From: an uncultured Ilyobacter sp.
GTDB taxonomy: Bacteria > Fusobacteriota > Fusobacteriia > Fusobacteriales > Fusobacteriaceae
Length of the DNA stretch: 64,000 nucleotides
Assembly (NCBI GenBank): GCA_963675185.2
Contig: CAXXOH010000003.1
Span: forward strand, 74,517-138,516
Reading direction: 5' to 3'
Under the pieces are notes generated by a model that was given only the letters and a program-made list of their open reading frames with translations, did no database searches and was not told the origin of the DNA. Below, piece after piece: positions 22,118 to 43,847 of the stretch. Both the position numbers and the translations under genes were made by a program. Every line of letters starts with the position of its first letter. Position 1 is the first letter of the stretch.

Positions 22118-24994
22118 TTAGTTTTTATCGATCTCAATTACATTTTGAGCCATTTCCCTAAAGGTATCGTCGTGCGTCACTATGATATTCTGCCTGCAAC
22201 CTTTCAAAATCTTATCCATGGAGTCTGCAAGCGCAAGCTTTCTCTCCATATCCAGGTTGTTTGTAGGTTCATCGAAAATTGAAAAGTTTGCGTCACTCAT
22301 AAGAGTTGCCATGGCCGCCCTTATGGAAAGAGCAACAGCCACCTGTTCTCCGCCTGAGAGAATGGTGAACTTCCTCTCCATGCCTTTCCCATCTGTGAGG
22401 TACACTGCAAAACTCTCCTTCTCGTTGTTTATCCAATCTATCTGCTCAGGCCTACCTGTGATATCTCTAAAGTTTTCCGTAGCCTTGAGTGCTATATTTT
22501 TTATCCAGCTGTCTGCAACCATTTTCCCCATGGTGTTTATGTTCCCACGGAATTTATCCGTCAAAGCTATTTTTTTGTTGAGCTTGGATATCTGCTGGGA
22601 TATCTCTTTGAGCCTCTTGGAGTCCTCTTTGTGCTTGGACTTCTTTTTCTTCAGCTCTTCTAATGCCGACTCGCTCTCACCGATCTTCTTGTGTATCCCC
22701 TTTTCGGTTTCCCTTAGCTCCGCTATGCTCCCTGCTATCTCTTCATACAGGTCCTTGTCGAAAATCGAGGTTTTCTCCTGGTGGGATTTTTTATGCTGTC
22801 CCAGCTCTTCGGCCACCTTTTCTATACCGGACTCCAGGCTTTTCTGTTTTTCCTGGTAAGCCCCGAGTTTCTCCGATGCACTGAGGTTCTGCATGTAGAT
22901 GTTGTGTCCCTCTTCATAGGATGCCATACTCTCCTTTACGCCTGCTATCTCGGCCTTCAGCTCGTCCATACCAACCAGTTTTCCTGAAAGCTCCTCTTGC
23001 CTGCTCTCAAGCCCGCCTTTTTCGTCTTTTAGGTTTTCCAGAGTGGCAAGCTTCACAGAAAGTTCCTCTCGCTTGGCTTCTACACCATTTTGTATGCTTA
23101 CTATCTTGTCCCTTGTCCCCGCTAGCTCCGACTCCAGTTCGCCTATCTTGAAGGCCCCCTCCTGCTGAACGAGTACACCTTCTTCTATTTCCAGCTTCTT
23201 GAAAGTCTCGTCAAAGTTATCCCCTTTTACAGGCGCGCCCTCTGATATCTTTTCCATAAGCTTTTCAAGTGAGGCAATCACTTCGTCTTGGAGCTTCAGA
23301 TTTTCAAGTTTTACTGCAAGATCGCTACTTTTATCCTTTTGGTCTTTTTTTCTATCTTCGAGCCTGGCTTTTTCCGATACGATCCCCTGTTTATCCCCGT
23401 CTAAGTCACCGTATCCAGTCAATTTTATGCTGAGCTCGTCTATCTTCTCTTTTAGCTCTGCTTCCCTCTGGCTGAAAAATGTGGCTGGATCAAGGTTTGA
23501 GCTCGCCAGGTTCTGGCACCTGTCGTTGAAGTAAGGGCAGATGGAGTCGCTCAGCTTCTCCTTTGCCATTGTGTTGTTTTCCAGCATGGCTTCGAGCTTT
23601 GACCTCTCCTCCATGAAGGCTGCCTTTTCAGCAAGCTTACCGTCAAGTCTGGAGATGCTGCTGTCTATTACCCTCTCTTCTTCCTCTATGGAATCCAGGT
23701 CGTATTTGGCTAGCTCACCCTCCAGGTTTTTTATTGTTTTGGCTAGGTCTCTCCTGGCCTCCTGCTTTTCCCACAGCTTGTCCAGCTCGGTTTTGTACTC
23801 TATCTTAAAGACTCTTAACTTTTCCAGTTTTTCTGATACTGCCTTTTTCTCAAGCTTTATTTTTTCAAGTTTTTCTTCCAGCCCTGCCAGAGTATCTTTG
23901 TTCTCCGAAAGTTTAGCCGTGTCGGCTTCTATGCCGCTTTCGGCTATCTTTATCTCAGCCCCGATATCCCCTATGGCCTTTTGCTTCCCCATTATCCCTT
24001 TTTCCAGCTCTAGCTTCGCTTCTTTTACGGTCTCGAACTCACGCATCCTGGCTTCCAGGGGTGTCAGCTTTTCTTTGCATTCCCTGTAGTTATCGTGGTT
24101 TTCCCTGTTTTCACTGCACAGCCTAGAGGCTTCCTCGGCGGTTTCTACGCTCTTTATGGCACCGTCTAGCTCTTCCTTCTTGGAACTTAAAAGTTTTTCA
24201 GAGCTCTCTATCTTTCCCGCCAGTAGGTCTATCTCCTTTTCGAGCTTTCTGCCGTCTTCCAGCCTGCTTTCCTGGGACTCCATCGCCTTTTTTATTTCAG
24301 CCAGCTTCCCGTTGTGCTCGGCTATTACCGCCTCGAATGCGGCTATGCCGGTCTTTATTTCCTCTATGTCCCCCATGTTTTCCTTTACGAGCTCTTTCTC
24401 ACCAGATAGCCTGTCCACGCCGTTCTTGTACCTCTCCATGGATTTCTGCGAGAATTTTGAGTAGATCTCCCTGTATATCTCGGTGTCGAATATCTTGTTG
24501 AACACATCTTCTATCTCCGGCCTCTGCCCCTTCCTGGCGGCGACGGTGTTTTTGGTGAATATCCCCACTATCTGGTTCTGCCCGGCGGTGACCACGTTGT
24601 CGTATATGTTCTCCGACTCTATCCCGCAGAGCACTCCCACCTTCTCGCCTATCTCCTTTATCCCGCTGGTGGAGTTTACAGGGTTGTCCTTTTCGTATAG
24701 CTCCGCCGAGCTGGTGGAGCCTATACCCCTTTTGAGCACGTAGACTATGCCGTCGTTCCCCTCGAACTCTATCTCGATGCTCCCGCGCTTTTTCCCCAGT
24801 GTCACAGCGTCCTGCAGCTTACCGGTCCTGGTGTTTGCCCCGAACATGGCGAGCCCTATGGCTTCCAGTATGGAGGATTTCCCTGATCCGTTTTTACCTA
24901 TGAGGAGGTTTATCCCGTCGGTGAACTCAACCCTTTCGTCCTCGTGCTTCCTGTAGTTTTTCAGGTGTACGCTATTTATCTTCAAGGTCTGCAC
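22118..24994 (-). CDS. sbcC: SbcC/Rad50-family ATPase
   Basis: Walker A GKNGSGKSS, ~700-aa coiled coil, signature LSGGEQVAVALSIR, Walker B FSIFDEPTNNLD. Confidence 0.9.
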   Translation of the reverse strand: MQTLKINSVHLKNYRKHEDERVEFTDGINLLIGKNGSGKSSILEAIGLAMFGANTRTGKLQDAVTLGKKRGSIEIEFEGNDGIVYVLKRGIGSTSSAELYEKDNPVNSTSGIKEIGEKVGVLCGIESENIYDNVVTAGQNQIVGIFTKNTVAARKGQRPEIEDVFNKIFDTEIYREIYSKFSQKSMERYKNGVDRLSGEKELVKENMGDIEEIKTGIAAFEAVIAEHNGKLAEIKKAMESQESRLEDGRKLEKEIDLLAGKIESSEKLLSSKKEELDGAIKSVETAEEASRLCSENRENHDNYRECKEKLTPLEARMREFETVKEAKLELEKGIMGKQKAIGDIGAEIKIAESGIEADTAKLSENKDTLAGLEEKLEKIKLEKKAVSEKLEKLRVFKIEYKTELDKLWEKQEARRDLAKTIKNLEGELAKYDLDSIEEEERVIDSSISRLDGKLAEKAAFMEERSKLEAMLENNTMAKEKLSDSICPYFNDRCQNLASSNLDPATFFSQREAELKEKIDELSIKLTGYGDLDGDKQGIVSEKARLEDRKKDQKDKSSDLAVKLENLKLQDEVIASLEKLMEKISEGAPVKGDNFDETFKKLEIEEGVLVQQEGAFKIGELESELAGTRDKIVSIQNGVEAKREELSVKLATLENLKDEKGGLESRQEELSGKLVGMDELKAEIAGVKESMASYEEGHNIYMQNLSASEKLGAYQEKQKSLESGIEKVAEELGQHKKSHQEKTSIFDKDLYEEIAGSIAELRETEKGIHKKIGESESALEELKKKKSKHKEDSKRLKEISQQISKLNKKIALTDKFRGNINTMGKMVADSWIKNIALKATENFRDITGRPEQIDWINNEKESFAVYLTDGKGMERKFTILSGGEQVAVALSIRAAMATLMSDANFSIFDEPTNNLDMERKLALADSMDKILKGCRQNIIVTHDDTFREMAQNVIEIDKN

Positions 24995-26189
24995 CCCCTT
25001 CCAGAATCTCTTCCAGCATGTTGTCGAACTCGTTGAAGAAGAGCTCCTCTTCCCCTTCCGTCTGGTACCTTTTCAGGTGCTGCAGAAGCATCGTTACCTT
25101 TTCCGTGTGGGATGAAAAGTTCTCCCAGCCGCTTATTATCCCCTTCTCTATCTCCTCCAAAGGGAGCTTGTCAAGGGAATCTATGCTGCCGTACATGGAT
25201 GAGGTGTACCTCGGCTTTACGAATACCTTGAAGAAGCCGAGCTCCTCTAGCTCCTCCTCCACCTTCTGGTAGTCAACTATGATGGAGTCCCCCATTACGA
25301 GCTCCACCATTAGTATCGCCGACTCGTCTGGAGTAAGACCCTCCTTGTAATTGGAGATCACAGACTCTACTTCCTCCTTCTCGCACTTTGAGAGGTCCAC
25401 GCTTGTGTTTATAACAAGCCTTTTTTTGTTCTCTATGAAGCTGTGCTCACAGGTCTCCGTGTCGAACAGTATGAACCCCTTCTGCGAGCCCTTTTTCCTT
25501 TCGTTCAGTATGTTCCAGTACTCGGAAGACCCGGGCAGGAAAAAGTACGGGTTCTCGATTGGGTAGGAGTAGTAGTTGTGCAGGTGACCCCCGGCCATGT
25601 AGAGGACTTTCCCTGCGAAACCGTCTATCACCTCTTTGCCCACAGTCCCGGACACGAACTCCTCGCCTCCGGCTATTGCCGTGTGTGCCAGCACCACGTT
25701 GTTTCCGCCGTTTTTGCCATCCAAAAACTCGGACAGCGACAGTAGCACCTTTTCCGTGAAGGCGCCGTTGAACCCAACTCCGTAGAAGTCCACCCCGTCT
25801 ATGCTGTGAGGCTGGAATATGTACGCCCCGTCCTCGTAGTTCGTCAGGTAGGATAGCTTCTTCAGATAGCCGCCACCCTCAAGGTAGCCTATCCATGAGT
25901 TCTCCTCGGCATGAGACTTGTCATGGTTCCCCTCGCATATGAGGACGCTCACGTCATTGGCTTTGAGTTTTTTCAGTATCCCCTCGGTCTTGTGCAGGGT
26001 GAGCGGGTTTATCTCCTTCTTGTCGAAGAAGTCCCCGGCTACCAAAAACACCTCCACAGAGTTTTCCACAGCGTAGTCCACTATGTTTTCAAAGGCGGTG
26101 AAGTAGTCTTCGTACCTCTGGTTTGAGAAGTCGGCAGTACCCGCCGGCCTCTTCCCCAAGTGTATATCTGAACAATGCAATATCTTCAT
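24972..26189 (-). CDS. sbcD: SbcD/Mre11-family nuclease
   Basis: Start moved to MKILHCSDIHLG (GGAGG RBS). Metallophosphoesterase motifs DIHLG, GDFFD, GNHD. Confidence 0.9.
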   Translation of the reverse strand: MKILHCSDIHLGKRPAGTADFSNQRYEDYFTAFENIVDYAVENSVEVFLVAGDFFDKKEINPLTLHKTEGILKKLKANDVSVLICEGNHDKSHAEENSWIGYLEGGGYLKKLSYLTNYEDGAYIFQPHSIDGVDFYGVGFNGAFTEKVLLSLSEFLDGKNGGNNVVLAHTAIAGGEEFVSGTVGKEVIDGFAGKVLYMAGGHLHNYYSYPIENPYFFLPGSSEYWNILNERKKGSQKGFILFDTETCEHSFIENKKRLVINTSVDLSKCEKEEVESVISNYKEGLTPDESAILMVELVMGDSIIVDYQKVEEELEELGFFKVFVKPRYTSSMYGSIDSLDKLPLEEIEKGIISGWENFSSHTEKVTMLLQHLKRYQTEGEEELFFNEFDNMLEEILEGGADLEDK

Positions 26190-26267
26190 TGTATTCCTCC
26201 AAAATAACATTATACCTAGATTATATGATATTTCTGGTTAAATTTGAAGGGAAGATATTTGTATAAA

Positions 26268-26990: not shown

Positions 26991-27061
26991 TTATTATGTA
27001 ATATTCAAAACAAAAGATTAAATTAATTTAATTTAAAAAAAGAAATACAAGGAATATCGAT

Positions 27062-28120
27062 ATGGATAAGAGGATCAGCGTAAAAAAGACAACTATAAAC
27101 AACAAAAAACGGCTCATTATAAAGTTCCAGTATGATGAGTCCATTATCAGTTTCATAAAATCCATTCCAGAGAGAAAATGGGATGCGAAACAAAAATACT
27201 GGCACATTCCCGACACCCCTGAAAACATGGAGATTTTAAAAAAATCCCTATCTATTCTTAACCTTTCAATAGAAGGAGATAAAGATAGATCAAATCCTTT
27301 CAAAGAGTATGAAGAATTTCTACATGCAAAGCGTTACAGTGATAAAACTATCACTTCATACATGAAACACGTCCGTACTTTCTTCCGATTTTTAAATAAT
27401 CCAAGACCAGAAGATGTAACCATAAAAGACATTTATAGATATATAAATGACAATATCGTCGAAAGGAAGCTATCGGAGTCATATCAAAACCAATCGATCA
27501 ACTCTATAAAAGGGTTTTATAAGATCGTATACAACAAAAACTTTAAAATTGAGGAGATACAAAGACCTAAAAAATCTAAAAAGCTCCCCATAGTTTTGTC
27601 AAAGGAAGAGGTCAAAAAACTATTTGACCATATAAAAAATTTAAAGCACAGGACTATACTCATGCTTATCTATTCTGGAGGACTTCGTATAAGTGAAGTC
27701 ATAAACCTCAAGCTGGTCGATATAGATAAAGACAGAAAGATAATCCGTATTGTTGGGGCAAAAGGTAAAAAAGACCGTATCGTCGGACTGTCGGAGAAGA
27801 TACTTCTCAATCTGCGCGAATACTACAAGGTTTACCGACCAACTGTATACCTCTTTGAAAGTACAGAGGAGGGTAAAAAATACTCCGCCAGAAGCATACA
27901 GAATGTATTTAACAGGGCTAAGTATGAGGCAGGCATAAATCAGAATGCCACAGTACATACACTGAGGCACAGTTATGCTACACATCTTCTGGAAGCAGGA
28001 GTTGACCTACGTATTATACAGGAATTACTGGGACACAAATCATCAAAAACCACAGAGATTTATACTCACGTCAGCACACGCACTATTCAAAGTGTAAAAA
28101 GTCCGTTTGATGATTTATAG
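27062..28120 (+). CDS. tyrosine recombinase/integrase (Xer-like core, extra N-terminal domain)
   Basis: Box I YSGGLRISE, GAKGKKDR, box II HTLRHSYATHLLEAGVDLRIIQELLGHKSSKTTEIYTHV (R-K-H-R-H-Y catalytic set), C-terminal SVKSPFDDL. An ~80-aa N-terminal domain (KRLIIKFQYDESIISFIKSIPERKWDAKQKYWHIP). Only ~93 aa between Arg I and Arg II. Confidence 0.9.
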   Translation: MDKRISVKKTTINNKKRLIIKFQYDESIISFIKSIPERKWDAKQKYWHIPDTPENMEILKKSLSILNLSIEGDKDRSNPFKEYEEFLHAKRYSDKTITSYMKHVRTFFRFLNNPRPEDVTIKDIYRYINDNIVERKLSESYQNQSINSIKGFYKIVYNKNFKIEEIQRPKKSKKLPIVLSKEEVKKLFDHIKNLKHRTILMLIYSGGLRISEVINLKLVDIDKDRKIIRIVGAKGKKDRIVGLSEKILLNLREYYKVYRPTVYLFESTEEGKKYSARSIQNVFNRAKYEAGINQNATVHTLRHSYATHLLEAGVDLRIIQELLGHKSSKTTEIYTHVSTRTIQSVKSPFDDL

Positions 28121-28129
28121 TGCGAAACA

Positions 28130-28200
28130 ACAATTGCGTCTATACTTCCAATTAGGGCGTATAGGCGTATATTTTATGCGTATATAGACGAGTTATAAAA
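28130..28200 (+). promoter_or_regulatory. attI-like site: clustered recombinase-binding-type repeats
   Basis: GCGTCTATAC (28136-28145), GCGTATAG (28157-28164), GCGTATAT (28165-28172), GCGTATATAGACG (28178-28190), then GTTATAA (28192-28198). CGTCTATA/TATAGACG form an inverted pair. Confidence 0.5.
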
Positions 28201-28244
28201 AATTGTAAACTGCGAACTACTATTAACAATAAATACATAGAATT

Positions 28245-29408
28245 ATGAAAAATTTAATTTTAACTTTATTATTCATTGCATTTTTGAATAATTGTTATTC
28301 TCAGTCTTTGATTACTAGTAGCATTACAAGTAAATCAAAGATTAATGCATTAATTCCTGAGAACGATTTTGATATCGAAGATTTCTTAGGATTTAAGTTT
28401 GATAAAATTAAAGCTGGACCAATTCAGCTTTCTGGTAAAAATAATTCATTAATATTTGATTTACCTGGTTTGAAAACCGAAATGGGATTTAATGGTTTGG
28501 GTAGTATTGAAGCTGATTTAATTATTGTCGGAATTGAAATTAAAGCTGACGAAGACTACACATATTCTATTCTCAAATTCAATGGTGGTATTTATAATAT
28601 TGCTTTTAGTGTTGGGAAACCGACAGGAAGTAATATGATAACATCAGCGATGACATTAAATCATATTCCCGCAATGCCATATTCATTAACAATAACAAAC
28701 ACTAAAAGCGGCATAGAGCATTCTTTGAAAGGGGAAACCGAAGCATGGACAAAATCTCAAATTCCGACTTATGGATTAATAGCATATTATCCATTTACGG
28801 GTAATGCAAATGATGAAAGTGGTAATAATAGAAATGGTACTGTACATGGAGCTCAATTGATAAAGGATAGATTTGGCAACCCAAATAACGCATATTTTTT
28901 TGATGGGTTAAAGGACTTCATCGACATTCCTGAACCATATAGTGAAACTTTTACTATCAACTTATGGGTTAATGTTAAATCTTTACCAAATCCTAGTAAT
29001 CCAAGTGTTTGGCAATTCACTCTTTTTGATGGTGGTGAGAATCACAATTCAAACGATGGTTTTTATATTGGGCTCGTAAATAATACAAGTCCATCCTATT
29101 TTTCATTACAAAATTTCAATTCTGAAGATGGTCTTACTAAAATTGATTGGAATAACAACGGGAATGGAATAAATACTAACCAATGGTATATGGTGACTAG
29201 TGTTATTTCGAAGGGCTCATGCAAATTATATATTAATGGACAATTAAGAGGGGAGAAATATACACATAGAGGAGCAGAATCAGGCTCCAGAAACTGGAGG
29301 ATTGGGGCACATGATATTGGGATTCAATATACTCACGGAATAATTGATGAAGTAAGAATTTATAATCGAGCATTAAGTCAAGATGAGATAACTTCATTAC
29401 TGGACTAA
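28245..29408 (+). CDS. secreted/lipoprotein LamG (concanavalin-A-like lectin) domain protein - cassette 1
   Basis: Signal peptide ending LNNC. YYPFTGNANDESGNNRNGTVHGAQL...DRFGNPNNAYFFDG ... IDEVRIYNRALSQDEI (LamG-type signature). Confidence 0.8.
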   Translation: MKNLILTLLFIAFLNNCYSQSLITSSITSKSKINALIPENDFDIEDFLGFKFDKIKAGPIQLSGKNNSLIFDLPGLKTEMGFNGLGSIEADLIIVGIEIKADEDYTYSILKFNGGIYNIAFSVGKPTGSNMITSAMTLNHIPAMPYSLTITNTKSGIEHSLKGETEAWTKSQIPTYGLIAYYPFTGNANDESGNNRNGTVHGAQLIKDRFGNPNNAYFFDGLKDFIDIPEPYSETFTINLWVNVKSLPNPSNPSVWQFTLFDGGENHNSNDGFYIGLVNNTSPSYFSLQNFNSEDGLTKIDWNNNGNGINTNQWYMVTSVISKGSCKLYINGQLRGEKYTHRGAESGSRNWRIGAHDIGIQYTHGIIDEVRIYNRALSQDEITSLLD

Positions 29409-29415
29409 CAACTTT

Positions 29416-29547
29416 TTATAACATTTTGTATATGATCATGGCAGTTTTAGTGCAAACTCCAACAGTCAATCCCGCGCCAACACCAGTGGATACGCGGACA
29501 GGAAAGTACACGCACTCTGCCACGCCACATACAATTTTCCGTTATCA
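29416..29547 (+). repeat. attC-like site 1 (long type)
   Basis: TATAAC (29417-29422) ... GTTATCA (29541-29547). Internal pairing TGGCAG/CTGCCA, AGTGC/GCACT, CCGCG/CGCGG. GC-rich within AT-rich flanks. Confidence 0.6.
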
Positions 29548-29564
29548 GAAACTAAGCAACAATT

Positions 29565-29689
29565 TAGGGCACATTACCTTTTTAAGGTAGATTATACTTT
29601 TGTATAATATTTTATTATCTAATCAATAAAACATAGTTTTTTTACTTTTGACTCAATGAGTGATTTATTTGCAATCAATATGTGCCCTA
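29565..29689 (+). ncRNA. candidate structured ncRNA upstream of the RT (inverted-repeat bounded)
   Basis: Perfect 10-nt inverted repeat TAGGGCACAT (29565-29574) / ATGTGCCCTA (29680-29689), ending 20 nt before the RT start. Internal hairpins TACCTT-ttt-AAGGTA (29575-29589) and ATTATAC-tttt-GTATAAT (29591-29608). Confidence 0.4.
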
Positions 29690-29708
29690 TTTTTTTAAGG
29701 AGAAACTA

Positions 29709-31040
29709 ATGAAAGAAAATTTAGCCGATATATTCAGTGAAGAAAATCTTAAAGATGTATTTATAAACAGAACTAGATATTCCTCTTCAGTTGGTTTAGA
29801 TAGAATTACAAGTAAAAACTTCGAAAATAAGTTATCAACTAATATATCATTTATTAGAAAAAAAATTTTTAACTACACATATAAATTCACTCCATATAAA
29901 GAAGCTTTAATTTTAAAAGGTCGTAATCAAAATCCGAGGGTAATTTCTATTCCAACAATTAAAGACCAGTTAGTTATTAAGCTTCTAAGCATTTTTCTTC
30001 AAAACCATTATGATAGTTTTAATAAGTTTAAATTATCTCAAACTTTGATATCTGAAATAATTAAACAAAAGAATAGTGGTAAATATAATTATTATATTAA
30101 GTTAGATATTTCAAACTTTTTCGGAACTATTAACCATGAAATTCTGTTTTATATTTTAAAAGAAAACAAAATCGATAAAAAAATTATTAAATTTATTAAT
30201 ACTATTATAACAACACCAACTGTCGATTTTAATTTACCTAAGCATAGTAGAGAAACATTTAATTTAAGAGGTGTTCCACAAGGATTAAGTATCAGTAATA
30301 TTCTTGCTTCATACTACTTATTAAGTTTTGATAAGAAGTATCAAAATAATGAAAATTTCTTTTATACCCGATATGTTGACGATATTTTAATCTTCTGTTC
30401 ACAAAAACATGCTGAAAAGCTTAATTCCCAAATTAAAAATTCATTATCTGATTTAAAGTTGGAAATAAACTCAAAAAAAAATGATTCAGGAGTTTTAAAT
30501 CAATCTTTTAAATTTTTAGGTTATGAGTTTAGTGAACAGTTTATTTCTCCAAGAATCGAAGCTATGAGGCGTGTTGAAAATTCACTAGAGAATTTTATTA
30601 AAAATTTTTCAAAACATAAAGATAAAAACTATAAATTATTTCTATGGTCTATTAATCTCAAAATTACAGGTACTATTTGTGATAACAAGAAGTATGGATG
30701 GCTTTTTTATTTTTCTCAGATTACTAATAAGAAAGTTCTATTCCATTTAGATTGGTTTATAAATAAAATGTTTAAAAGATTTGGAATTAATTTGAAAATT
30801 ATTGATGATATTCGTCTAAAAAAATTTGTTCGAGCTTACAACGAAATTACGTTAAATTTAAATCATACAAAGTATATTCCACATTTAGACAAATTTACTT
30901 TTGAAGATAAAAAAAAATTTTTATCAGATATTGCTAATTTTGAACCAGGATTAACTGAAGATGAAACAAATAATAAATTTAAACAAATCATTTTTAAACA
31001 ATTAGCAACACTTGAAAAAGATATACAAAATTTTTCATAG
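29709..31040 (+). CDS. reverse transcriptase (non-retron, UG/Abi/group-II-like) - cassette 2
   Basis: Start moved to ATG 29709 (AAGGAG 6 nt upstream). RT motifs PRVISIPTIKDQLV, IKLDISNFFGTI, LRGVPQGLSISNIL, FYTRYVDDILIF (YxDD), KFLGYEF, plus a ~170-aa helical C-terminal extension. Confidence 0.85.
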   Translation: MKENLADIFSEENLKDVFINRTRYSSSVGLDRITSKNFENKLSTNISFIRKKIFNYTYKFTPYKEALILKGRNQNPRVISIPTIKDQLVIKLLSIFLQNHYDSFNKFKLSQTLISEIIKQKNSGKYNYYIKLDISNFFGTINHEILFYILKENKIDKKIIKFINTIITTPTVDFNLPKHSRETFNLRGVPQGLSISNILASYYLLSFDKKYQNNENFFYTRYVDDILIFCSQKHAEKLNSQIKNSLSDLKLEINSKKNDSGVLNQSFKFLGYEFSEQFISPRIEAMRRVENSLENFIKNFSKHKDKNYKLFLWSINLKITGTICDNKKYGWLFYFSQITNKKVLFHLDWFINKMFKRFGINLKIIDDIRLKKFVRAYNEITLNLNHTKYIPHLDKFTFEDKKKFLSDIANFEPGLTEDETNNKFKQIIFKQLATLEKDIQNFS

Positions 31041-31049
31041 GAGGAACAT

Positions 31050-31637
31050 ATGACAGAATCAAATATTAAAGAATCACAAAAGAGTTTAAGTAATAAAATT
31101 TATAAAACTAGAAAAGCTAGAATTATTTTTTCGGATGAATTAAAAAGCCAACATTCCTTTTATGAAGGACTCATGACTTATTACACTGTTATGATAATTG
31201 TTTTTTCATTACTTGAAAGTGTAATATCCATCGAAAATTTTTCACTATATATCCTTATTCTATCAATAGCTTTAGGTTTTTTCACTCTATTTATTCAGTC
31301 ACAAAAATTTTTAGAAAGACATTTGGATTTAAAAAAACACTATATTGATTTGGAAAATATTTATTTTAATTTAAATGTAATAGAGACTCCAACAAAGGAT
31401 GCAATAGAAAAAATAAATAGAGAGTATACCGATGCATTGAATAGCCATGAAAATCATTCCTCAATCCACTATTTAAAAGCTCAATATAATATTTCTGATA
31501 TTAGCTTTCCTGATAAAATTAAAGTATGGTTTTATAATTTAAAAAGTTATTTATTTAGATTTGCTTTAATTATCTTTCCATTTTTTGTTCCAAAACTAAT
31601 TATTTGGGTAAAGCTTATCTTTATTGAAAAATCTTAA
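31050..31637 (+). CDS. small membrane protein, SLATT-like 2TM effector candidate
   Basis: 195 aa. N-terminal helix IYKTRKARIIFSDELK, TM pair LMTYYTVMIIVFSLLESVISI / FSLYILILSIALGFFTLFI, helical region, C-terminal hydrophobic segment. GGAGG RBS 9 nt after the RT stop. Confidence 0.55.
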   Translation: MTESNIKESQKSLSNKIYKTRKARIIFSDELKSQHSFYEGLMTYYTVMIIVFSLLESVISIENFSLYILILSIALGFFTLFIQSQKFLERHLDLKKHYIDLENIYFNLNVIETPTKDAIEKINREYTDALNSHENHSSIHYLKAQYNISDISFPDKIKVWFYNLKSYLFRFALIIFPFFVPKLIIWVKLIFIEKS

Positions 31638-31643
31638 AGCATC

Positions 31644-31703
31644 TGATAACAAACGGCAGATTCCATGAAAATCGCACGGCATCTGTCCATCAGACCGTTA
31701 GGT
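31644..31703 (+). repeat. attC-like site 2 (short type)
   Basis: TGATAAC (31644-31650) AAACGGCAGAT...ATCTG...CCGTTAGGT; R' box GTTAGGT (31697-31703) followed by GACATTA. 60 bp. Confidence 0.65.
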
Positions 31704-31807
31704 GACATTATGGTAAGTGTATATAGAGTTGGTAGATTTTCTCGTTAACATCTCCTAACTCCATATAGACGACATAAAAGGTAACATTCTCTAGGGAGGT
31801 AAGTGTT

Positions 31808-32007
31808 TTGAAAAAAACATATAAAGAATATATAAGAGAATTTTTTCTCGAAATAACTGACGAAGACTTCGATATTTTTTTGAAGAACAGGAAGCAATTA
31901 GGGAAAAATTCGAAGAGGAAATGTTTGGAGAAACTCCTCTTGAGAAATATATGAATGACGTTAGAAGAATTATTAATCAAGATATAGAAGATGATTGTCC
32001 ATTTTAA
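31808..32007 (+). pseudogene. small acidic ORF interrupted by a frameshift in a T7 tract
   Basis: TTG start 8 nt after AGGGAGG gives MKKTYKEYIREFFLEITDEDFDIF. After the T-run 31875-31881, a different frame (the one a T8 tract would restore) reads EEQEAIREKFEEEMFGETPLEKYMNDVRRIINQDIEDDCPF*. The 200-nt span needs one extra T to be in frame. Confidence 0.4.
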
Positions 32008-32030
32008 AAATAAAAAATTAGGAGGTCTAA

Positions 32031-32798
32031 ATGAAAGAAAATGATTTTATTGCTTTTGATAATTCTGATAGAATATTTATTAATACTTTCCTAGGATGTT
32101 ATTCAAAATGTTCGTATTGCTATTTACCAAGTCTAAATATTCAAACATATAGTCATAAATCTGTTGAATCAATTATTGATGAATTAAATGAGATTCCCGA
32201 GTTTATTAAAGGAAAAAATGGAACTATTATTTCAATTGGGTGCTATTCAGAGTGCTGGGATGTTTTTAATAGAAAAAATACCATTAATTTAATAAATTTA
32301 CTTTTAGAATATGAAAATCCTATTCAGCTTGCTACAAAACAATACATAAACATTAAGCATATTGAGGAAATAGCTTCAAAGATTAAATGGAAAGGTCAAA
32401 TAACAATATATACTAGTTGCTCTACCATTACTGATTGGGAAAAATATGAAAACAAAACCACCAATCCTAAAAAAAGATTCCAAAATTTCCTTATAAAAAA
32501 ACATTTGGATATTCCAGTTATTTTGTATATAAAACCAGTAATAAAAGGTGTCACTATTAGAGATATTTCTCATTTTATTAATCTGATTGAAGAATATAAA
32601 GTAAAAGTGATTGTTGGCAGTCTATTTGTTCCAAATAAAATATGCTCAGAAGAAAAATCTCCAATTAGTACCTTGTTAACATATAAAAAAAATTCTGAAG
32701 AAGATGTTTTAAAAACAGAATTAAAAAAATACGCTGATGTTTTTGAATTTAGCACTGAAATTGTAGAATACTACAGAAAGGAGAATTACAATGGATAA
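32031..32798 (+). CDS. radical SAM protein (SPL/DNA-photolyase-like subgroup) - cassette 3
   Basis: CxxxCxxC cluster motif in FLGCYSKCSYCYLPS near the N-terminus; 255 aa; GGAGG RBS. Confidence 0.7.
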   Translation: MKENDFIAFDNSDRIFINTFLGCYSKCSYCYLPSLNIQTYSHKSVESIIDELNEIPEFIKGKNGTIISIGCYSECWDVFNRKNTINLINLLLEYENPIQLATKQYINIKHIEEIASKIKWKGQITIYTSCSTITDWEKYENKTTNPKKRFQNFLIKKHLDIPVILYIKPVIKGVTIRDISHFINLIEEYKVKVIVGSLFVPNKICSEEKSPISTLLTYKKNSEEDVLKTELKKYADVFEFSTEIVEYYRKENYNG

Positions 32799-33582
32799 TA
32801 TAGTTATTTATACTTTTATTGTTGTTTCAGCTATTGGAACTATTATTTCTTTATTCGATACATTTTTATTTCTTCCAAAAAAACTAAAAGATAAAATTGT
32901 CAAGAACAGACTTCAAGAATCTATTGAAATACTAAAAGAATTTGGAATCAAGCCTGAAATATACACAAAAACAAATATTGCTTCTAAAATTGATGCGGAG
33001 GTAACTGGGGATTTAAGAGCACAAGTTAATACTACCTTGAATAATTTTAAAGAAGATATACCTGTTAATATCGGTAAAATAAACTCTAAGCCTCTTAAAT
33101 ACTATATAGATTTAATCGGAGCATCAACAAATCCAAAAAATTCAGAACTCTTTGCCAGATATCTTACAACATTTTGGAGAGAAACTGTTACATCAAATAC
33201 TTCTGTTAAAAATCTTGAATTTGATTTTGTGGTAACACCAAAACAGGGAAGTCCAATTATTGGATATGAATTTGCTAGAAAAATGGAAAAACCTTTCATT
33301 ATTTATTCTAGGGAAGAAAAATTTAGTACAGCAGATGATAACTTTAAAAAACACTTTGATTGTGAGGAGATTCCTCCAAAAGGTAAAACTGCCATAATTG
33401 TCGATGATAGCACAACAGGAGGAAGAATGATGAAAGAAGTTATAAAAGCTCTTAAGTCAAATGGCTATACTATTACAGAATGTTTAGTAATATTTGAACC
33501 AACTGTAAAAGATGCTAGAGGTATTCTTCAAGGGTTAGGTGTTAATTTACATTCAATTGTTAAAATAAATAATCACGAATAG
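32791..33582 (+). CDS. membrane-anchored phosphoribosyltransferase-domain protein
   Basis: N-terminal TM IVIYTFIVVSAIGTIISLF. OPRT-like C-terminal half with PRPP loop AIIVDDSTTGGRMMKEV. Overlaps the rSAM gene by 8 nt (ATGGATAA). Confidence 0.75.
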   Translation: MDNIVIYTFIVVSAIGTIISLFDTFLFLPKKLKDKIVKNRLQESIEILKEFGIKPEIYTKTNIASKIDAEVTGDLRAQVNTTLNNFKEDIPVNIGKINSKPLKYYIDLIGASTNPKNSELFARYLTTFWRETVTSNTSVKNLEFDFVVTPKQGSPIIGYEFARKMEKPFIIYSREEKFSTADDNFKKHFDCEEIPPKGKTAIIVDDSTTGGRMMKEVIKALKSNGYTITECLVIFEPTVKDARGILQGLGVNLHSIVKINNHE

Positions 33583-33590
33583 GAGATAAC

Positions 33591-34070
33591 ATGAAGATAG
33601 AAAAAAACTACGTTGTTTCTGGTATTATCTTTTATGCTAATAAGGTTCTATTAATTAAACATAAAAAATTTAACAAATGGCTTTATCCAGGTGGGCATAT
33701 TGAAAAAAATGAAACTCCAGAAGAGGCTTTAAAAAGAGAAATATTTGAAGAAGTTGGATTGAAAGTATCTATAATCGATTCTTCTAACTATAAATACTTA
33801 GCTCATGCAAATGTAAGAACACTTAAAACTCCTTTTACCATTGTAGAAGAAGTCCTTATTAAAACTCAAAAAAAGGAAGTTTACAATATTGATTTAATCT
33901 ATGTTTGTAAAAGTGATAAAACTGAACCTTTGATTATTAATGAAAAAGAAGTTTCAGAAGTACATTGGTTTTCAATAAATGAAATTGATAATTTAGATTC
34001 TTTTCCAGAATTGGTTCCTTTAATTAATGAAGCTTATGACATCTATATTAAAAATATAAAAATCACCTAA
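33591..34070 (+). CDS. Nudix hydrolase
   Basis: Nudix box GGHIEKNETPEEALKREIFEEVGL. Confidence 0.85.
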   Translation: MKIEKNYVVSGIIFYANKVLLIKHKKFNKWLYPGGHIEKNETPEEALKREIFEEVGLKVSIIDSSNYKYLAHANVRTLKTPFTIVEEVLIKTQKKEVYNIDLIYVCKSDKTEPLIINEKEVSEVHWFSINEIDNLDSFPELVPLINEAYDIYIKNIKIT

Positions 34071-34128
34071 CACGGCGACAACCAACATGCAAAAACCGCA
34101 CGTCGGTTTGGTCGCGAATCCGTTAGAA
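34065..34128 (+). repeat. attC-like site 3 (short type)
   Basis: ACCTAAC (34065-34071, contains the Nudix stop codon) ...GGCGACAACC...GGTTTGGTCGC... GTTAGAA (34122-34128) GACAT. Centre CATGCAAAAACCGCACG resembles the site 2 centre CATGAAAATCGCACG. Confidence 0.65.
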
Positions 34129-34875: not shown

Positions 34876-35002
34876 TTCTAACAATATGTTTCCGACGCCC
34901 ACTTCACTAACCAGAGTCACCCTTGCATAAGGTGTTCGCAGGCTCACAACCATGAGCAAGGGTTGTAACCTCAGTGGCGTCGGCAACACATAAACGTTAT
35001 TC
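34876..35002 (+). repeat. attC-like site 4 (long type)
   Basis: TTCTAAC (34876-34882) ... GTTATTC (34996-35002). Long arms CCGACGCC..ACT..CCCTTGC / GCAAGGG..AGTGGCGTCGG. Confidence 0.65.
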
Positions 35003-35035
35003 TGAGAACTCATCGATAAGGAGATTTAAATAGAA

Positions 35036-36116: not shown

Positions 36117-36183
36117 CCATAAGGGTGCGTATAGCTGGTCGGCAGTTAGATACTTTTGGGAAGAGCCGGCGCCTCCGTTATTT
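36117..36183 (+). repeat. attC-like site 6
   Basis: CATAAG (36118-36123) GGTGCGTATAGCTGGTCGGC...GCCGGCGCCTCC GTTATTT (36177-36183) GACATT. The R'' box is degenerate. Confidence 0.45.
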
Positions 36184-39812: not shown

Positions 39813-40010
39813 GACAGAGAAAACACTTTAAAATAAAAATAATTTTTGTCACGAATTTTCACGGATCACACGAATCGATTAAAATTTTTGAGCAACGCCT
39901 TCTTTATGTATCCCTATTAATTCCACTTCTCTGTGAAGCTCTTTATTTTTCTCTGTGTCATTCTGTGACCAAAATATCTTTTATTCGTGTCCATTCGTGT
40001 GATTCGTGAC
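39813..40010 (+). repeat. structured intergenic repeat, copy 4 (left arm truncated)
   Basis: GACAGAGAAAAC...GTCACGAATTTTCACGGATCACACGAATCG...CTCTGTGAAGC...CTCTGTGTCATTCTGTGACCAAAATA...ATTCGTGTCCATTCGTGTGATTCGTGAC. Confidence 0.85.
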
Positions 40011-40226
40011 AAAAAAATGCTTTTCATTATCGACTTTAGATCAATTCAATGCTTTAATTAAAAATTATATACAGGTAGCAACTTAGGTTAATTAGGAGAC
40101 GCTAAATTAAATTTAAGGGATTTAAATATAATTACTCCTATATTTTCTAATGGTGGTGTGTCATGCCAAGCGCACCACCTTATAATAAACATATAGAAAA
40201 CTTCACTTTAAGCTAAGGAGGAAAAT

Positions 40227-42102: not shown

Positions 42103-43017
42103 TCATATCTCTTCTGCTTCTATTATATCTTTATTTTTAAGTTTTTTGTTGGTAGATCCCAGGTATATAGCGCCTAGAGATAGGACAAAACCTATAAGAT
42201 CAATTATACTTGTGGGGCGTTTAAAAAATAGCATATCCCATATCATAGACAGTGTCGGCTGCATAAGCAGTATTAATCCTGCTGTGGATACGGGTATACT
42301 TGACATAGATGAGGATATAAATATCCAGCCCAAACACTGGCAGAATATGCCGTAAGCTAATAAAACAATCAGGTTTTTAGCCGAAATCAGATTAAAACTT
42401 TCACCAGAGAATTTTGAAATAGTTCCGAGTACAATAGCCGAAGATACGCATGCCCAGAATATATTACTGCTTGGAGAAAATTTATTTTTTAATTTGGATG
42501 AAAAATTTAGAGTTAATATATATCCTGTATAAAATACAGCTGTAGTCAGACCTAAAATAACACCTAATTTATAGTTGGGTGTATTGCCCTTCCAATTGAC
42601 ACCGCACAAAAGAAATATCCCTATAAGTGCTAAAATAATCGACAGATAAAATTTCCAGTTGATCTTCTCTTTAAATATCAAAAAACTTATAACAGCTATA
42701 AAAACCACCTGGAAATTTCCAAGTACTGTAGCAAGACCCGGACCTATATAGTGAATACTTCTGTGCCATACAAAAAGATCAAAAGCAAAAAACAATCCTG
42801 CAAGTGCTGAGTATAGAAAAGCAGTAATACCGACCCATAATTTTTCTTTTTTTATCAGACAGAATACGAGTAGGAATACCGCTCCAAATGCTACTCTGTA
42901 AAAGGCTGAAATACTGGGGCTTACGGTAGTCATTCTGGTAAATACAGCGGAAAAGCTTATAATGGAAGAACCTGCTATAAGCAGCCCCATATCTTTATTT
43001 TTTAAAACATTGTTCAT
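42103..43017 (-). CDS. DMT/EamA-family transporter (opposite strand to the cassette array)
   Basis: 304 aa, ~10 TM helices, two EamA-like halves. Confidence 0.8.
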   Translation of the reverse strand: MNNVLKNKDMGLLIAGSSIISFSAVFTRMTTVSPSISAFYRVAFGAVFLLVFCLIKKEKLWVGITAFLYSALAGLFFAFDLFVWHRSIHYIGPGLATVLGNFQVVFIAVISFLIFKEKINWKFYLSIILALIGIFLLCGVNWKGNTPNYKLGVILGLTTAVFYTGYILTLNFSSKLKNKFSPSSNIFWACVSSAIVLGTISKFSGESFNLISAKNLIVLLAYGIFCQCLGWIFISSSMSSIPVSTAGLILLMQPTLSMIWDMLFFKRPTSIIDLIGFVLSLGAIYLGSTNKKLKNKDIIEAEEI

Positions 43018-43156
43018 AAATAATCCCTCATTGTAAAATTTTATATGAACAGATTATAGCATGTATAGTATAATAAAGGAATAAAATATTTTGAACACAA
43101 AAAAGAATTAAAAGTTATTTAGTTCTATTAATACATATATGCAAAGTATTCCTATC

Positions 43157-43374
43157 AGCTAACACTGTGCAGACTAAGCAGCTTCCTCTTGTATGGAGTA
43201 GTTCTATCTATGATAAGGATATGAATCAATAGACAAATCGTAGAATTCGTAATTAAATTAAGCTGGTATGAGATTGGTAGAAGGATATTTTGGGCGAGAT
43301 TAATAAATTATCATTAATAACAGGAAGATTTATATAGCTGAACGACAAATAGACCCCATGGCACAGCGTTAGAC
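43157..43374 (+). repeat. attC-like site with unusually long (~190 nt) centre
   Basis: AGCTAAC ACTGTGC (43157-43170) pairs with GCACAGC GTTAGAC (43361-43374). The R' box lies 32 nt before the next start codon. Confidence 0.45.
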
Positions 43375-43405
43375 GGCTTGCTAAAAACTGAGAAGGATGA
43401 TATAG

Positions 43406-43847
43406 ATGGATTATATAAAATATATTAGAGAAAAAGTCGGGCACCAAGAAATAAACTTAACAGGTGTAAATGTGTTGATAATAAATGAAAAAGAAGAAAT
43501 TCTATTGCAGAAAAGGGGGACTGATAGGCGGGGTTATAGATTTGGGGGAATCACTAGAAGAAACGGCTATAAGGGAGGCTAAGGAAGAAAGCTGACTGGA
43601 TGTGTCCGAGCTTAAACTTCTGGGGACAACTTCCGGAAAAGACTGCTTAGTACACTTCCCCAACAACGATAAAGCTTATTTTATTACCATACCATACTAC
43701 ACCAATAACTTTAAAGGCAGCATGCTTATCGATGAAAATGAAACTATGGATTTACAGTTTTTCAGTTACGAGTCATTACCAGACAATATTCCTAAAACAC
43801 ATAGAAAAATGATAGACAGCTACCATAAACTTGGTAAAAAAAAATGA
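43406..43847 (+). pseudogene. Nudix hydrolase, disrupted (frameshift/deletion + in-frame TGA)
   Basis: ATG 43406 gives MDYIKYIREKVGHQEINLTGVNVLIINEKEEILLQKRGTD. The frame then breaks. The next frame reads IGGVIDLGESLEETAIREAKEES-TGA-LDVSELKLLG... (Nudix box with TGA where Gly is expected) and continues to 43847. Confidence 0.75.

Follow-up and report, generated by a model that had tools for sequence, protein, structure and literature searches.

What kind of system is formed by a reverse transcriptase (RT) gene, a small membrane-protein gene and the structured segment that precedes them in the genome of an uncultured Ilyobacter sp.? The locus lies in a 64,000-nt stretch of contig CAXXOH010000003.1, which we call the window. 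A sequence-only reading had taken it for a defence unit of an unassigned subtype, made up of an RT, a noncoding RNA (ncRNA) and a SLATT-like membrane effector. The features it described, an intact RT, a SLATT gene 9 nt downstream and a 125-nt upstream segment, were all found where it had placed them. All three parts are present and intact: the RT is a UG17 protein, its partner is a SLATT_5 protein and the upstream element belongs to a UG17-associated RNA family. We are confident, if short of certain, that a complete anti-phage system of the DRT10 (UG17) type lies here, in the gene order ncRNA-RT-SLATT. The combination of UG17, SLATT and ncRNA has been characterised as DRT10 in preprints of 2025-26 (PMC12632851; bioRxiv 10.64898/2026.04.29.721553). 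Hence, the earlier interpretation was right in kind and wrong on novelty; the locus is a divergent DRT10/UG17 system whose genes stand in a variant order and which is carried in an integron-type cassette.

The RT matches the PADLOC profile RT_UG17 with E = 8.8e-142 and 471 bits, its residues 3-443 covering positions 5-429 of 429, while the second-ranked PADLOC profile, that of a generic RT family, reaches 142 bits. Proteins entered as UG17 loci in Table S1 of Tang et al. are found among its homologues. We read IKLDISNFF, LRGVPQGLSISNIL, YTRYVDDILIF and KFLGYEF in its translation, with YVDD at residues 222-225 (nucleotides 30372-30383). Its ATG lies 6 nt beyond a Shine-Dalgarno sequence and lines up with the starts of homologues. 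The final residue is Ser443 (tail ...LEKDIQNFS; codon 31035-31037). A terminal Ser is present in 112 of 150 homologues, and 149 of the 150 have Ser or Tyr within the last 7 residues. In E. coli, DRT10 RTs prime on their own C-terminal residue, S456 at the end of the 456-aa Eco3DRT10 and Y444 of Eco1DRT10 (PMC12632851). The sequence of the window RT thus holds both the catalytic YVDD and the C-terminal Ser expected of DRT10, and priming on that Ser is predicted. No relative of the RT above 52% identity was found in the databases. Searching with tblastn, we obtained no matches in phages and 8 in plasmids, all at 35% identity or less and all annotated only as reverse transcriptase.

Is the second protein a genuine SLATT effector, as had been suspected? 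Its open reading frame (ORF) begins 9 nt past the RT stop codon, in the same orientation, and its GGAGG overlaps that stop codon. The protein matches Pfam SLATT_5 over its full length (5e-22), NCBIfam SLATT_5 with 97.9 bits against a cutoff of 60 (4.7e-28) and the PADLOC profile RTasSLATT, for RT-associated SLATT proteins (2.8e-32). Together with the UG17 match, these hits bear out the proposed union of RT, RNA and SLATT effector; they leave no room for an unassigned subtype. Among the solved structures searched, there was none of a DRT10 system and none homologous to the SLATT protein.

We then considered the segment upstream of the RT. TAGGGCACAT and ATGTGCCCTA are exact reverse complements over 10 bp, and 19 nt separate the 3' arm of this inverted repeat from the RT ATG. 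A perfect inverted repeat of at least 10 nt appears in 2.7% of dinucleotide-preserving shuffles of 29541-29708, which makes it modestly unusual when taken alone. The predicted RNA fold of 29555-29700 has an energy of -30.6 kcal/mol (z = -3.9), and none of 200 shuffles was as stable. Since a 10-nt inverted repeat is not rare in itself, the case for an RNA rests on the comparison across loci.

For this comparison, 168 loci encoding relatives of the RT were collected; no E. coli locus is among them. SLATT precedes the RT in 141 of the 168. The order RT-SLATT, with gaps of -29 to +30 nt, occurs in 17, including all the closest relatives of the window, and in a few loci SLATT is followed by some 200 nt and then by the RT. 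In a neighbour-joining tree, the RT-SLATT loci fell into three neighbouring groups with a few SLATT-RT loci in between, and their monophyly was not established. In the four closest relatives, the 125 nt upstream of the RT align with the window element. The basal stem (P1) shows compensatory changes among these close relatives, GGGCACAU/AUGUGCCC, GGGUGCAU/AUGCACCC and GGGCGCAU/AUGCGCCC, and in SL4 the AAGAC/GUCUU of close relatives has become AAAAC/GUUUU in the window. Across the five close sequences, 96% of positions pair and four pairs are compensatory.

Covariance models were built in succession from 5 (R1), 9 (R2) and 16 (R3) sequences. In the 16-sequence alignment, 94.6% of positions are paired; sliding the partners by 1-3 columns lowers this to 40-48%. 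Compensatory changes that alter both bases occur in each of the 31 pairs, and the covariation score is 0.95 compared with at most 0.20 in controls. P1 is paired in all 16 sequences, with up to five pair types at a position. We conclude that the inverted-repeat-bounded segment is a conserved structured RNA, as the sequence-only reading had supposed; its count of two clean hairpins was too low, for the segment holds four, and all five helices (P1 and SL2 to SL5) are intact in the window. The linker motif CUAAUCAAU (29619-29627), whose last two bases open SL4, recurs in 11 of the 17 RT-SLATT loci and also among the rows of the alignment. We also observed that this motif has the pattern AAU-C-AAU.

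Is the RNA tied to UG17 genes? In 166 loci, R3 gave 80 matches at E up to 1. In SLATT-RT loci, 63 of these lay on the gene strand immediately ahead of SLATT; in RT-SLATT loci, 10 lay immediately ahead of the RT. Another 2, from Balneola and a Paceibacterota genome, fell in the space after SLATT and before the RT; 3 more lay on the opposite strand of the element itself and 2 elsewhere. The position is thus consistent, beside UG17 genes, for 75 of the 80. The order SLATT-ncRNA-RT represents a third arrangement, seen in the Balneola/Paceibacterota pair (L005, 2815-2960; L008, 715-859), where the ncRNA occupies the space of about 200 nt that directly precedes the RT (R2 E values 1e-10 and 3e-6). 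The models also pick up RNAs ahead of SLATT in loci of Cohnella, Paenibacillus and Clostridia, among others. Within the window, 29563-29691 is the only convincing match. Scanning 27000-34000 against Rfam at E up to 1, we found no matching family; the DRT10 ncRNA is apparently absent from Rfam 15.

A search that used no model gave a similar picture: all 17 RT-SLATT loci have an uninterrupted long-range helix of 9-19 bp, unrelated in sequence from locus to locus and ending 7-42 nt before the RT start. Two of these are the Paenibacillus loci UG17_locus_357 and 499, which have the tight RT-SLATT arrangement and which Tang et al. list as "SLATT associated TRUE, ncRNA associated FALSE" (Table S1; PMC12632851). 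Run without filters, R2 matched both directly upstream of the RT, at low scores (L059, 19.1 bits, E 0.72; L081, 16.2 bits, E 2.3). The ncRNA call in these two loci is therefore a tentative one, weak by score and drawn mainly from position and the long-range stem.

How does the window RNA compare with those already described? DRT10 ncRNAs are built on a central stem that bears stem-loops, the last of which is followed by the template loop (PMC12632851). In the accessible part of Table S2 of Tang et al., the Eco1-like ncRNA predicted for Microbulbifer consists of P1, SL2, SL3, a 12-nt linker CAACUAAUAUUG, SL4, an extra stem-loop, SL5, a 23-nt template loop and the P1 3' arm (PMC12632851). We mapped it to 2249-2382 of our locus L054, ending 11 nt before SLATT. 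The topology of the window RNA is the same (P1, SL2, SL3, linker, SL4, SL5, loop, P1). In the same accessible part of the table, ACUAAU, which is related to the window linker motif, stands in the J3/4 linker of a published DRT10 ncRNA, and the string CUAAU is frequent. R2 gave no match at the Microbulbifer ncRNA or in loci of genera such as Pseudomonas, Vibrio and Morganella. The window element also has the basal stem, the stem-loops and the length of about 120-145 nt that mark DRT10 ncRNAs, beside its RT. We conclude from these sequence comparisons that 29563-29691 is, by prediction, a DRT10 ncRNA. Positions of all features are collected in Table 1.

Table 1. Positions of the features of the locus and its surroundings, numbered from the first nucleotide of the window
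Feature	Position	Strand	Remarks
DRT10-type ncRNA	29563-29691	+	129 nt; covariance models R1 99 bits, R2 88, R3 83, E 3.7e-12
P1 basal stem, 5' arm TAGGGCACAT	29565-29574	+	pairs with 29680-29689
SL2 UACCUU-UUU-AAGGUA	29575-29589	+	100% paired; 4 of 4 modelled pairs covary
SL3 AUUAUAC-UUUU-GUAUAAU	29591-29608	+	93.7% paired; 7 of 7 pairs covary
J3/4 single-stranded linker	29609-29627	+	holds motif CUAAUCAAU at 29619-29627
SL4 AUAAAAC-AUA-GUUUUUU	29626-29642	+	one U.U mismatch
SL5 ACUC-AAU-GAGU	29651-29661	+	relatives: GACUC-NNNN-GAGU
Template loop (predicted) GAUUUAUUUGCAAUCAAU	29662-29679	+	18 nt, between SL5 and P1 3' arm
P1 3' arm ATGTGCCCTA	29680-29689	+	pairs with 29565-29574
U7 tract	29690-29696	+	directly after P1, then Shine-Dalgarno AAGGAG 29697-29702
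UG17 (DRT10) reverse transcriptase	29709-31040	+	443 aa; PADLOC RT_UG17, Pfam RVT_1
SLATT_5 transmembrane effector	31050-31637	+	195 aa; Pfam, NCBIfam, PADLOC
attC-like site closing the preceding (LamG-type) cassette	29416-29547	+	R'' TTATAAC 29416-29422, R' GTTATCA 29541-29547
attC-like site closing the DRT10 cassette	31644-31703	+	R'' TGATAAC 31644-31650, R' GTTAGGT 31697-31703
Further attC-like sites	34065-34128; ~34880-35010; R' boxes at 36177, 44073, 44866	+	array
Radical-SAM protein	32031-32798		cassette 31704-34128
Phosphoribosyltransferase-like protein	32791-33582		cassette 31704-34128
NUDIX hydrolase	33591-34070		cassette 31704-34128; PADLOC candidate PDC-S07, 4.6e-18

What might the RNA template? 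In the E. coli systems, the DRT10 RT makes kilobase-long tandem-repeat single-stranded DNA from a short A-B template in the loop after SL5, re-aligning on a downstream A' (PMC12632851). With SL5 of Eco3DRT10 as the model (PMC12632851), SL5 of the window is likely the 5' template-boundary hairpin. The loop that follows holds two candidate A-B-A' units, AUUU|AUUU (29663-29670) and CAAU|CAAU (29672-29679). Among shuffled loops, a 4-nt pattern of this kind arises by chance in 26%, two 4-nt patterns in 7% and a 3-nt pattern in 78%. Close relatives have CAUCAU or CAUCACAUCA where the window has AUUUAUUU. We therefore slightly favour the 5' unit as the template, which is a guess from sequence.

If the E. 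coli homologues are a guide, the RT would bind the ncRNA and use the hydroxyl of Ser443, its own last residue, to begin DNA synthesis. A few nucleotides would be copied from the loop that separates SL5 from the basal stem, and the nascent cDNA would slip back onto the downstream repeat of the template start (A-B-A'). Repetition of this cycle would yield a long single-stranded tandem-repeat DNA, predicted to be (AAAT)n from AUUU|AUUU or (ATTG)n from CAAU|CAAU. In UG17 systems, host ExoI (SbcB) controls the system and a phage SSB-like protein is the trigger (bioRxiv 10.64898/2026.04.29.721553). By analogy, a host 3'-5' exonuclease would set the level or state of the cDNA, and a phage SSB-like protein would upset it. 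The cDNA would in turn control the SLATT membrane protein, whose activation would arrest or kill the infected cell. For E. coli DRT10, two proposals exist for this last control, neutralisation of SLATT by cDNA and its activation when cDNA accumulates (PMC12632851; bioRxiv 10.64898/2026.04.29.721553).

Several points weigh against reading the locus as a complete DRT10 system. The 16-sequence alignment was fitted to the model structure, which biases its pair counts towards that structure. Our covariance models do not score gammaproteobacterial (E. coli-type) ncRNAs. This agrees with the reported clade-specificity of DRT10 covariance models, which are subtype-specific (bioRxiv 10.64898/2026.04.29.721553), and it means that what ties the window RNA to the validated ones is a shared topology, its position and the CUAAU motif. 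In a loop so rich in A and U, the A-B-A' pattern is weak as evidence, given how often 4-nt units arise by chance. The cDNA product, the priming residue, the defence phenotype and SLATT activation are all predictions carried over from homologues about 35% identical. Finally, no sigma-70-like promoter was found ahead of the ncRNA in the window; expression may come by read-through from the array.

Perhaps, then, the locus is a DRT10 relative that follows another RNA logic? In this alternative, direct repeats shared by the J3/4 linker and the loop would let the cDNA re-anneal, giving a unit of about 55 nt or an RNA anchor, P1 and the U tract would act as an attenuator, and the ncRNA would be the 5' leader of the RT-SLATT mRNA. 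The J3/4 sequence AUUUUAUUAUCUAAUCAAUA does resemble the loop sequence GAUUUAUUUGCAAUCAAUA, as direct repeats. Comparing linker and loop across 16 loci, we observed a mean similarity of 12.8 within a locus and 10.6 between loci (permutation p = 0.0002). The effect is small, however, and the base composition of a locus or an old internal duplication could explain it. The four closest relatives (L002, L004, L165 and L166) share with the window a tract of 4-7 U residues followed by a Shine-Dalgarno sequence at the matching place. In the window, a GC-rich P1 followed by a U tract ahead of the RT Shine-Dalgarno sequence resembles an intrinsic terminator or attenuator, and might serve as one. RT-SLATT relatives outside cassettes have, read by eye, a clear -10 box 3-10 nt before P1, which also counts in favour of this reading; the window has none. 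Against this, 20-nt B segments abolished repeat synthesis in Eco3DRT10 (PMC12632851), and the UG17-A ncRNA is independently transcribed and acts in trans (bioRxiv 10.64898/2026.04.29.721553). We regard this alternative as unlikely.

A related proposal goes further for the clade of the window, and we hold it to be doubtful, though a shade less so. In this clade the ncRNA would be the 5' leader of an RT-SLATT operon, with P1 and the U tract dividing transcripts into free ncRNA and read-through mRNA, and J3/4, co-varying with the loop, would form a second cDNA-binding site that serves as RNA anchor or alternative alignment site. If so, repeat length or processivity would differ from that of the E. 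coli systems, and, combined with packaging in an integron cassette, the locus would represent a distinct, self-regulating and mobile DRT10 subtype.

Is the unit really an integron cassette? The sequence-only reading had called the pair a single integron-type cassette. We searched for attC-like sites by reading the intergenic regions and with an extended R' box; two home-made attC scanners, one scoring fold energy and the other an anchored end alignment, missed even obvious sites and were abandoned. attC-like sites bound the unit on both sides, at 29416-29547 and 31644-31703, as they do other units of the array. The bottom strand of the upstream site forms a fold that spans its whole length and is closed by TAAC/GTTA pairing at the ends (-17.9 kcal/mol, z = -2.1). 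The cassette starts at the TT of R', and P1 of the ncRNA lies 18 nt past the R' box. The downstream R' box GTTAGGTGACAT is one of five copies of the extended box GTTRNNWGAMAT; each copy lies between genes and on the + strand, where 2.0 copies would be expected with both strands counted. A tyrosine recombinase (27062-28120), oriented like the cassettes, scores 238 bits with NF040815 ("tyrosine recombinase/integron integrase"), above the cutoff of 220; with TIGR02249 IntI it scores 225 bits, in two stretches, short of the cutoff of 265. In the four closest relatives, an R' box of the GTTAGCTGAMAT type stands 25-30 nt before the ncRNA, and L004 is itself a small array. The cassette claim holds as to its attC-like flanks, next to a tyrosine recombinase that may be an integron integrase, and is weaker in detail: GTTATCA is a degenerate upstream R', and the fold of the downstream site is less canonical than at the others. 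Since it sits between attC-like sites, the 2.15-kb unit 29542-31697 is presumably mobile as one cassette.

The cassette setting raises another alternative, that of a silent or decaying unit whose genes are intact and unexpressed in this host, its own promoter missing, in second place within a large array. In keeping with this, no promoter-like site precedes the ncRNA, and the upstream R' and the -10 region are more degenerate in the window than in relatives. Integron cassettes are, as a rule, often promoterless. On the other side, both ORFs are full length with all the invariant residues of the family, the five RNA helices are unbroken, and the cassette stands second after the recombinase, a position that is usually still transcribed. 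We consider silence or decay quite improbable. We also noted that cassette relatives carry an attC R' core (TTAGCT/TTAACT) where a -35 box would be.

Could the RT instead belong to one of the better-known non-UG classes? The sequence-only reading had likened the inverted repeat to retron a1/a2 repeats and had described an RT devoid of retron hallmarks. For a retron-like element, in which a1/a2 repeats would bound an msr-msd RNA and a branched multicopy single-stranded DNA (msDNA) would restrain the membrane effector, the geometry fits, with a repeat-bounded structured RNA directly upstream of the RT and an effector of the two-transmembrane (2TM) type. Weak matches to NCBIfam retron_St85 (58 bits) and PADLOC RT_II-A (52 bits) also point that way. 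However, 58 bits is far from the retron_St85 cutoff of 235, while the UG17 profile scores 471 bits. The RNA belongs to a family found beside UG17 RTs, no Rfam msr was found in 27000-34000, and DRT10 homologues are primed by protein, not by an RNA 2'-OH (PMC12632851). A retron is thus extremely improbable, and the likeness to a1/a2 is one of geometry only: the stem is the P1/SL1 basal helix of a DRT10 ncRNA. That the RT is not a retron RT was correct; the claimed absence of VTG is debatable. K-I-T-G at residues 318-321 (30660-30671) resembles the VTG thumb motif of retron and group II RTs. In a 13-sequence RT alignment N316, I319, T320 and G321 are invariant, with K or R at the first position of the motif, and N316, I319 and G321 are at least 90% conserved across 114 homologues.

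Whether judged by sequence or by fold, the solved structures nearest to the RT are those of group II intron and G2L4 RTs. Its AlphaFold2 model (pLDDT 94.4, with the final 3-4 residues flexible) superimposes on group II-intron-like and G2L4 RTs with template-modelling scores of 0.64-0.68, on DRT9 with 0.58-0.61 over its whole length and on DRT2 with 0.50. Since the model resembles group II-intron-like RTs and DRT9 throughout, what had been called a helical C-terminal extension is probably the thumb and C-terminal domain common to these enzymes. A group II-type RT or maturase, or a domesticated G2L RT with no defence role and with hairpins that are intron or terminator remnants, would share this fold and the 149-bit match to group_II_RT_mat (TIGR04416), but we give it hardly any credence: that match falls short of the 300-bit cutoff, the Rfam scan of 27000-34000 showed no group II intron RNA, the fold likeness is that of a common RT core which DRT9 and DRT2 match too, and the RT has an obligate SLATT partner and a UG17 profile match.

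What surrounds the DRT10 cassette? An integron-like array extends over 27062-~45500 (+), the recombinase being followed by a long run of short + strand genes. It is chromosomal, with flanking housekeeping genes (thrC, aspartate kinase and gltA upstream). Among named organisms, gltA is best matched by Hypnocyclicus thermotrophus (Fusobacteriota) at 76% identity, with Clostridia at 72-74%, which does not fix the taxon of the host. A PADLOC scan of the neighbouring cassette proteins returned weak or partial matches only. The next cassette, 31704-34128, holds a small ORF and three overlapping or adjacent genes, and could be an uncharacterised nucleotide-modifying or defence module. An imperfect inverted repeat of about 30 nt (GTCACGAATTTTCACGGATCACACGAATCG ... 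ATTCGTGTCCATTCGTGTGATTCGTGAC) lies at 39850-40080, within 647 nt of intergenic sequence, and may be either a regulatory site or a small mobile element. At ~43100-43700, a NUDIX-like frame broken by stop codons, in a 2.1-kb stretch with no listed + strand gene, may be a decayed cassette; a 304-aa ORF lies nearby on the - strand (42103-43017). Directly upstream of the recombinase is an SbcC/SbcD-like pair (22118-26210, -), a 958-aa SMC-type ATPase and a 412-aa Mre11-type nuclease, for which PADLOC matches a generic ATPase only.

What does the locus add? It is no new kind of system, and its value is incremental, in that the ncRNA is extended to a clade where it had been missed. Particular to the locus are the tight ncRNA-RT-SLATT order, the attC-like flanks and the resemblance between linker and loop. 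In all three gene orders seen, the ncRNA directly precedes the first gene or the RT; hence, the three-part DRT10 architecture may be close to universal. A defence unit that includes an ncRNA gene and can presumably travel as a single integron cassette is an added example, not a new principle. A very AU-rich loop with two competing 4-nt units and a template-like linker offers simple test cases for how template boundary and alignment are chosen in DRT10, a proposed relative of telomerase.

Among known systems, retrons, whose type IV has a 2TM effector, share with the locus an inverted repeat around a structured RNA upstream of the RT, a membrane effector and the logic of abortive infection. They differ in RT clade, and the window system would, by homology, use protein priming rather than a branch guanosine and make a tandem repeat rather than msDNA of fixed length. 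DRT9 (UG28) and DRT2 (UG2) likewise join a structured ncRNA to a UG-family RT and make repetitive cDNA, protein-primed in DRT9. Their profiles, however, score far lower on the window RT than UG17 does, with about 70 bits for Drt2; the matches listed include no model for UG28. Unlike what is predicted here, DRT9 makes poly-dA from a U tract, and DRT2 makes a concatemeric gene and has no SLATT effector. Integron cassettes are already on record as carriers of defence systems ("Mobile Integrons Encode Phage Defense Systems", bioRxiv 10.1101/2024.07.02.601719), and the locus resembles them as a compact, self-contained unit between attC sites downstream of a tyrosine recombinase. It differs in its cargo, an ncRNA gene and two proteins, and in a recombinase that scores under the curated IntI cutoff and is oriented like the cassettes. 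As far as the accessible text of the two DRT10 papers and of the supplements of Tang et al. goes, the word "integron" does not appear.

Nearer to the locus stand the UG17 subtypes of Sanchez-Nieto et al. (2026), where A and C are SLATT-RT and B is RT, about 200 bp and SLATT, and where the ncRNA of subtypes A-C lies "upstream of the SLATT gene" (bioRxiv 10.64898/2026.04.29.721553). In comparison with B and C, the window RT is most similar to Bacillota-type UG17 RTs, at about 40% identity, and it shares the RT-before-SLATT order with B. Neither tight RT-SLATT coupling nor an ncRNA upstream of the RT is described in the text of either DRT10 paper (PMC12632851; bioRxiv 10.64898/2026.04.29.721553). 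In the three E. coli systems of Tang et al. 2025 (Eco1-3DRT10), an ncRNA of ~137 nt, SLATT and RT are all needed for defence (PMC12632851). The window differs from these in its order, ncRNA-RT-SLATT with a 9-nt gap where theirs is ncRNA-SLATT-RT, in an RT about 35% identical to the proteobacterial homologues among the collected loci, and in its integron cassette where theirs lie in a prophage, a phage-inducible chromosomal island (PICI) or a defence island. With Eco1-3DRT10 and the UG17-A system of Escherichia sp. E3659, it shares a UG17 RT with YVDD and a C-terminal Ser, a SLATT_5 partner, and an ncRNA of about 125-145 nt that has a basal stem, stem-loops, a CUAAU linker and a 3' template loop, predicted in the window and there with candidate short direct repeats, and that ends 10-30 nt ahead of the first gene.

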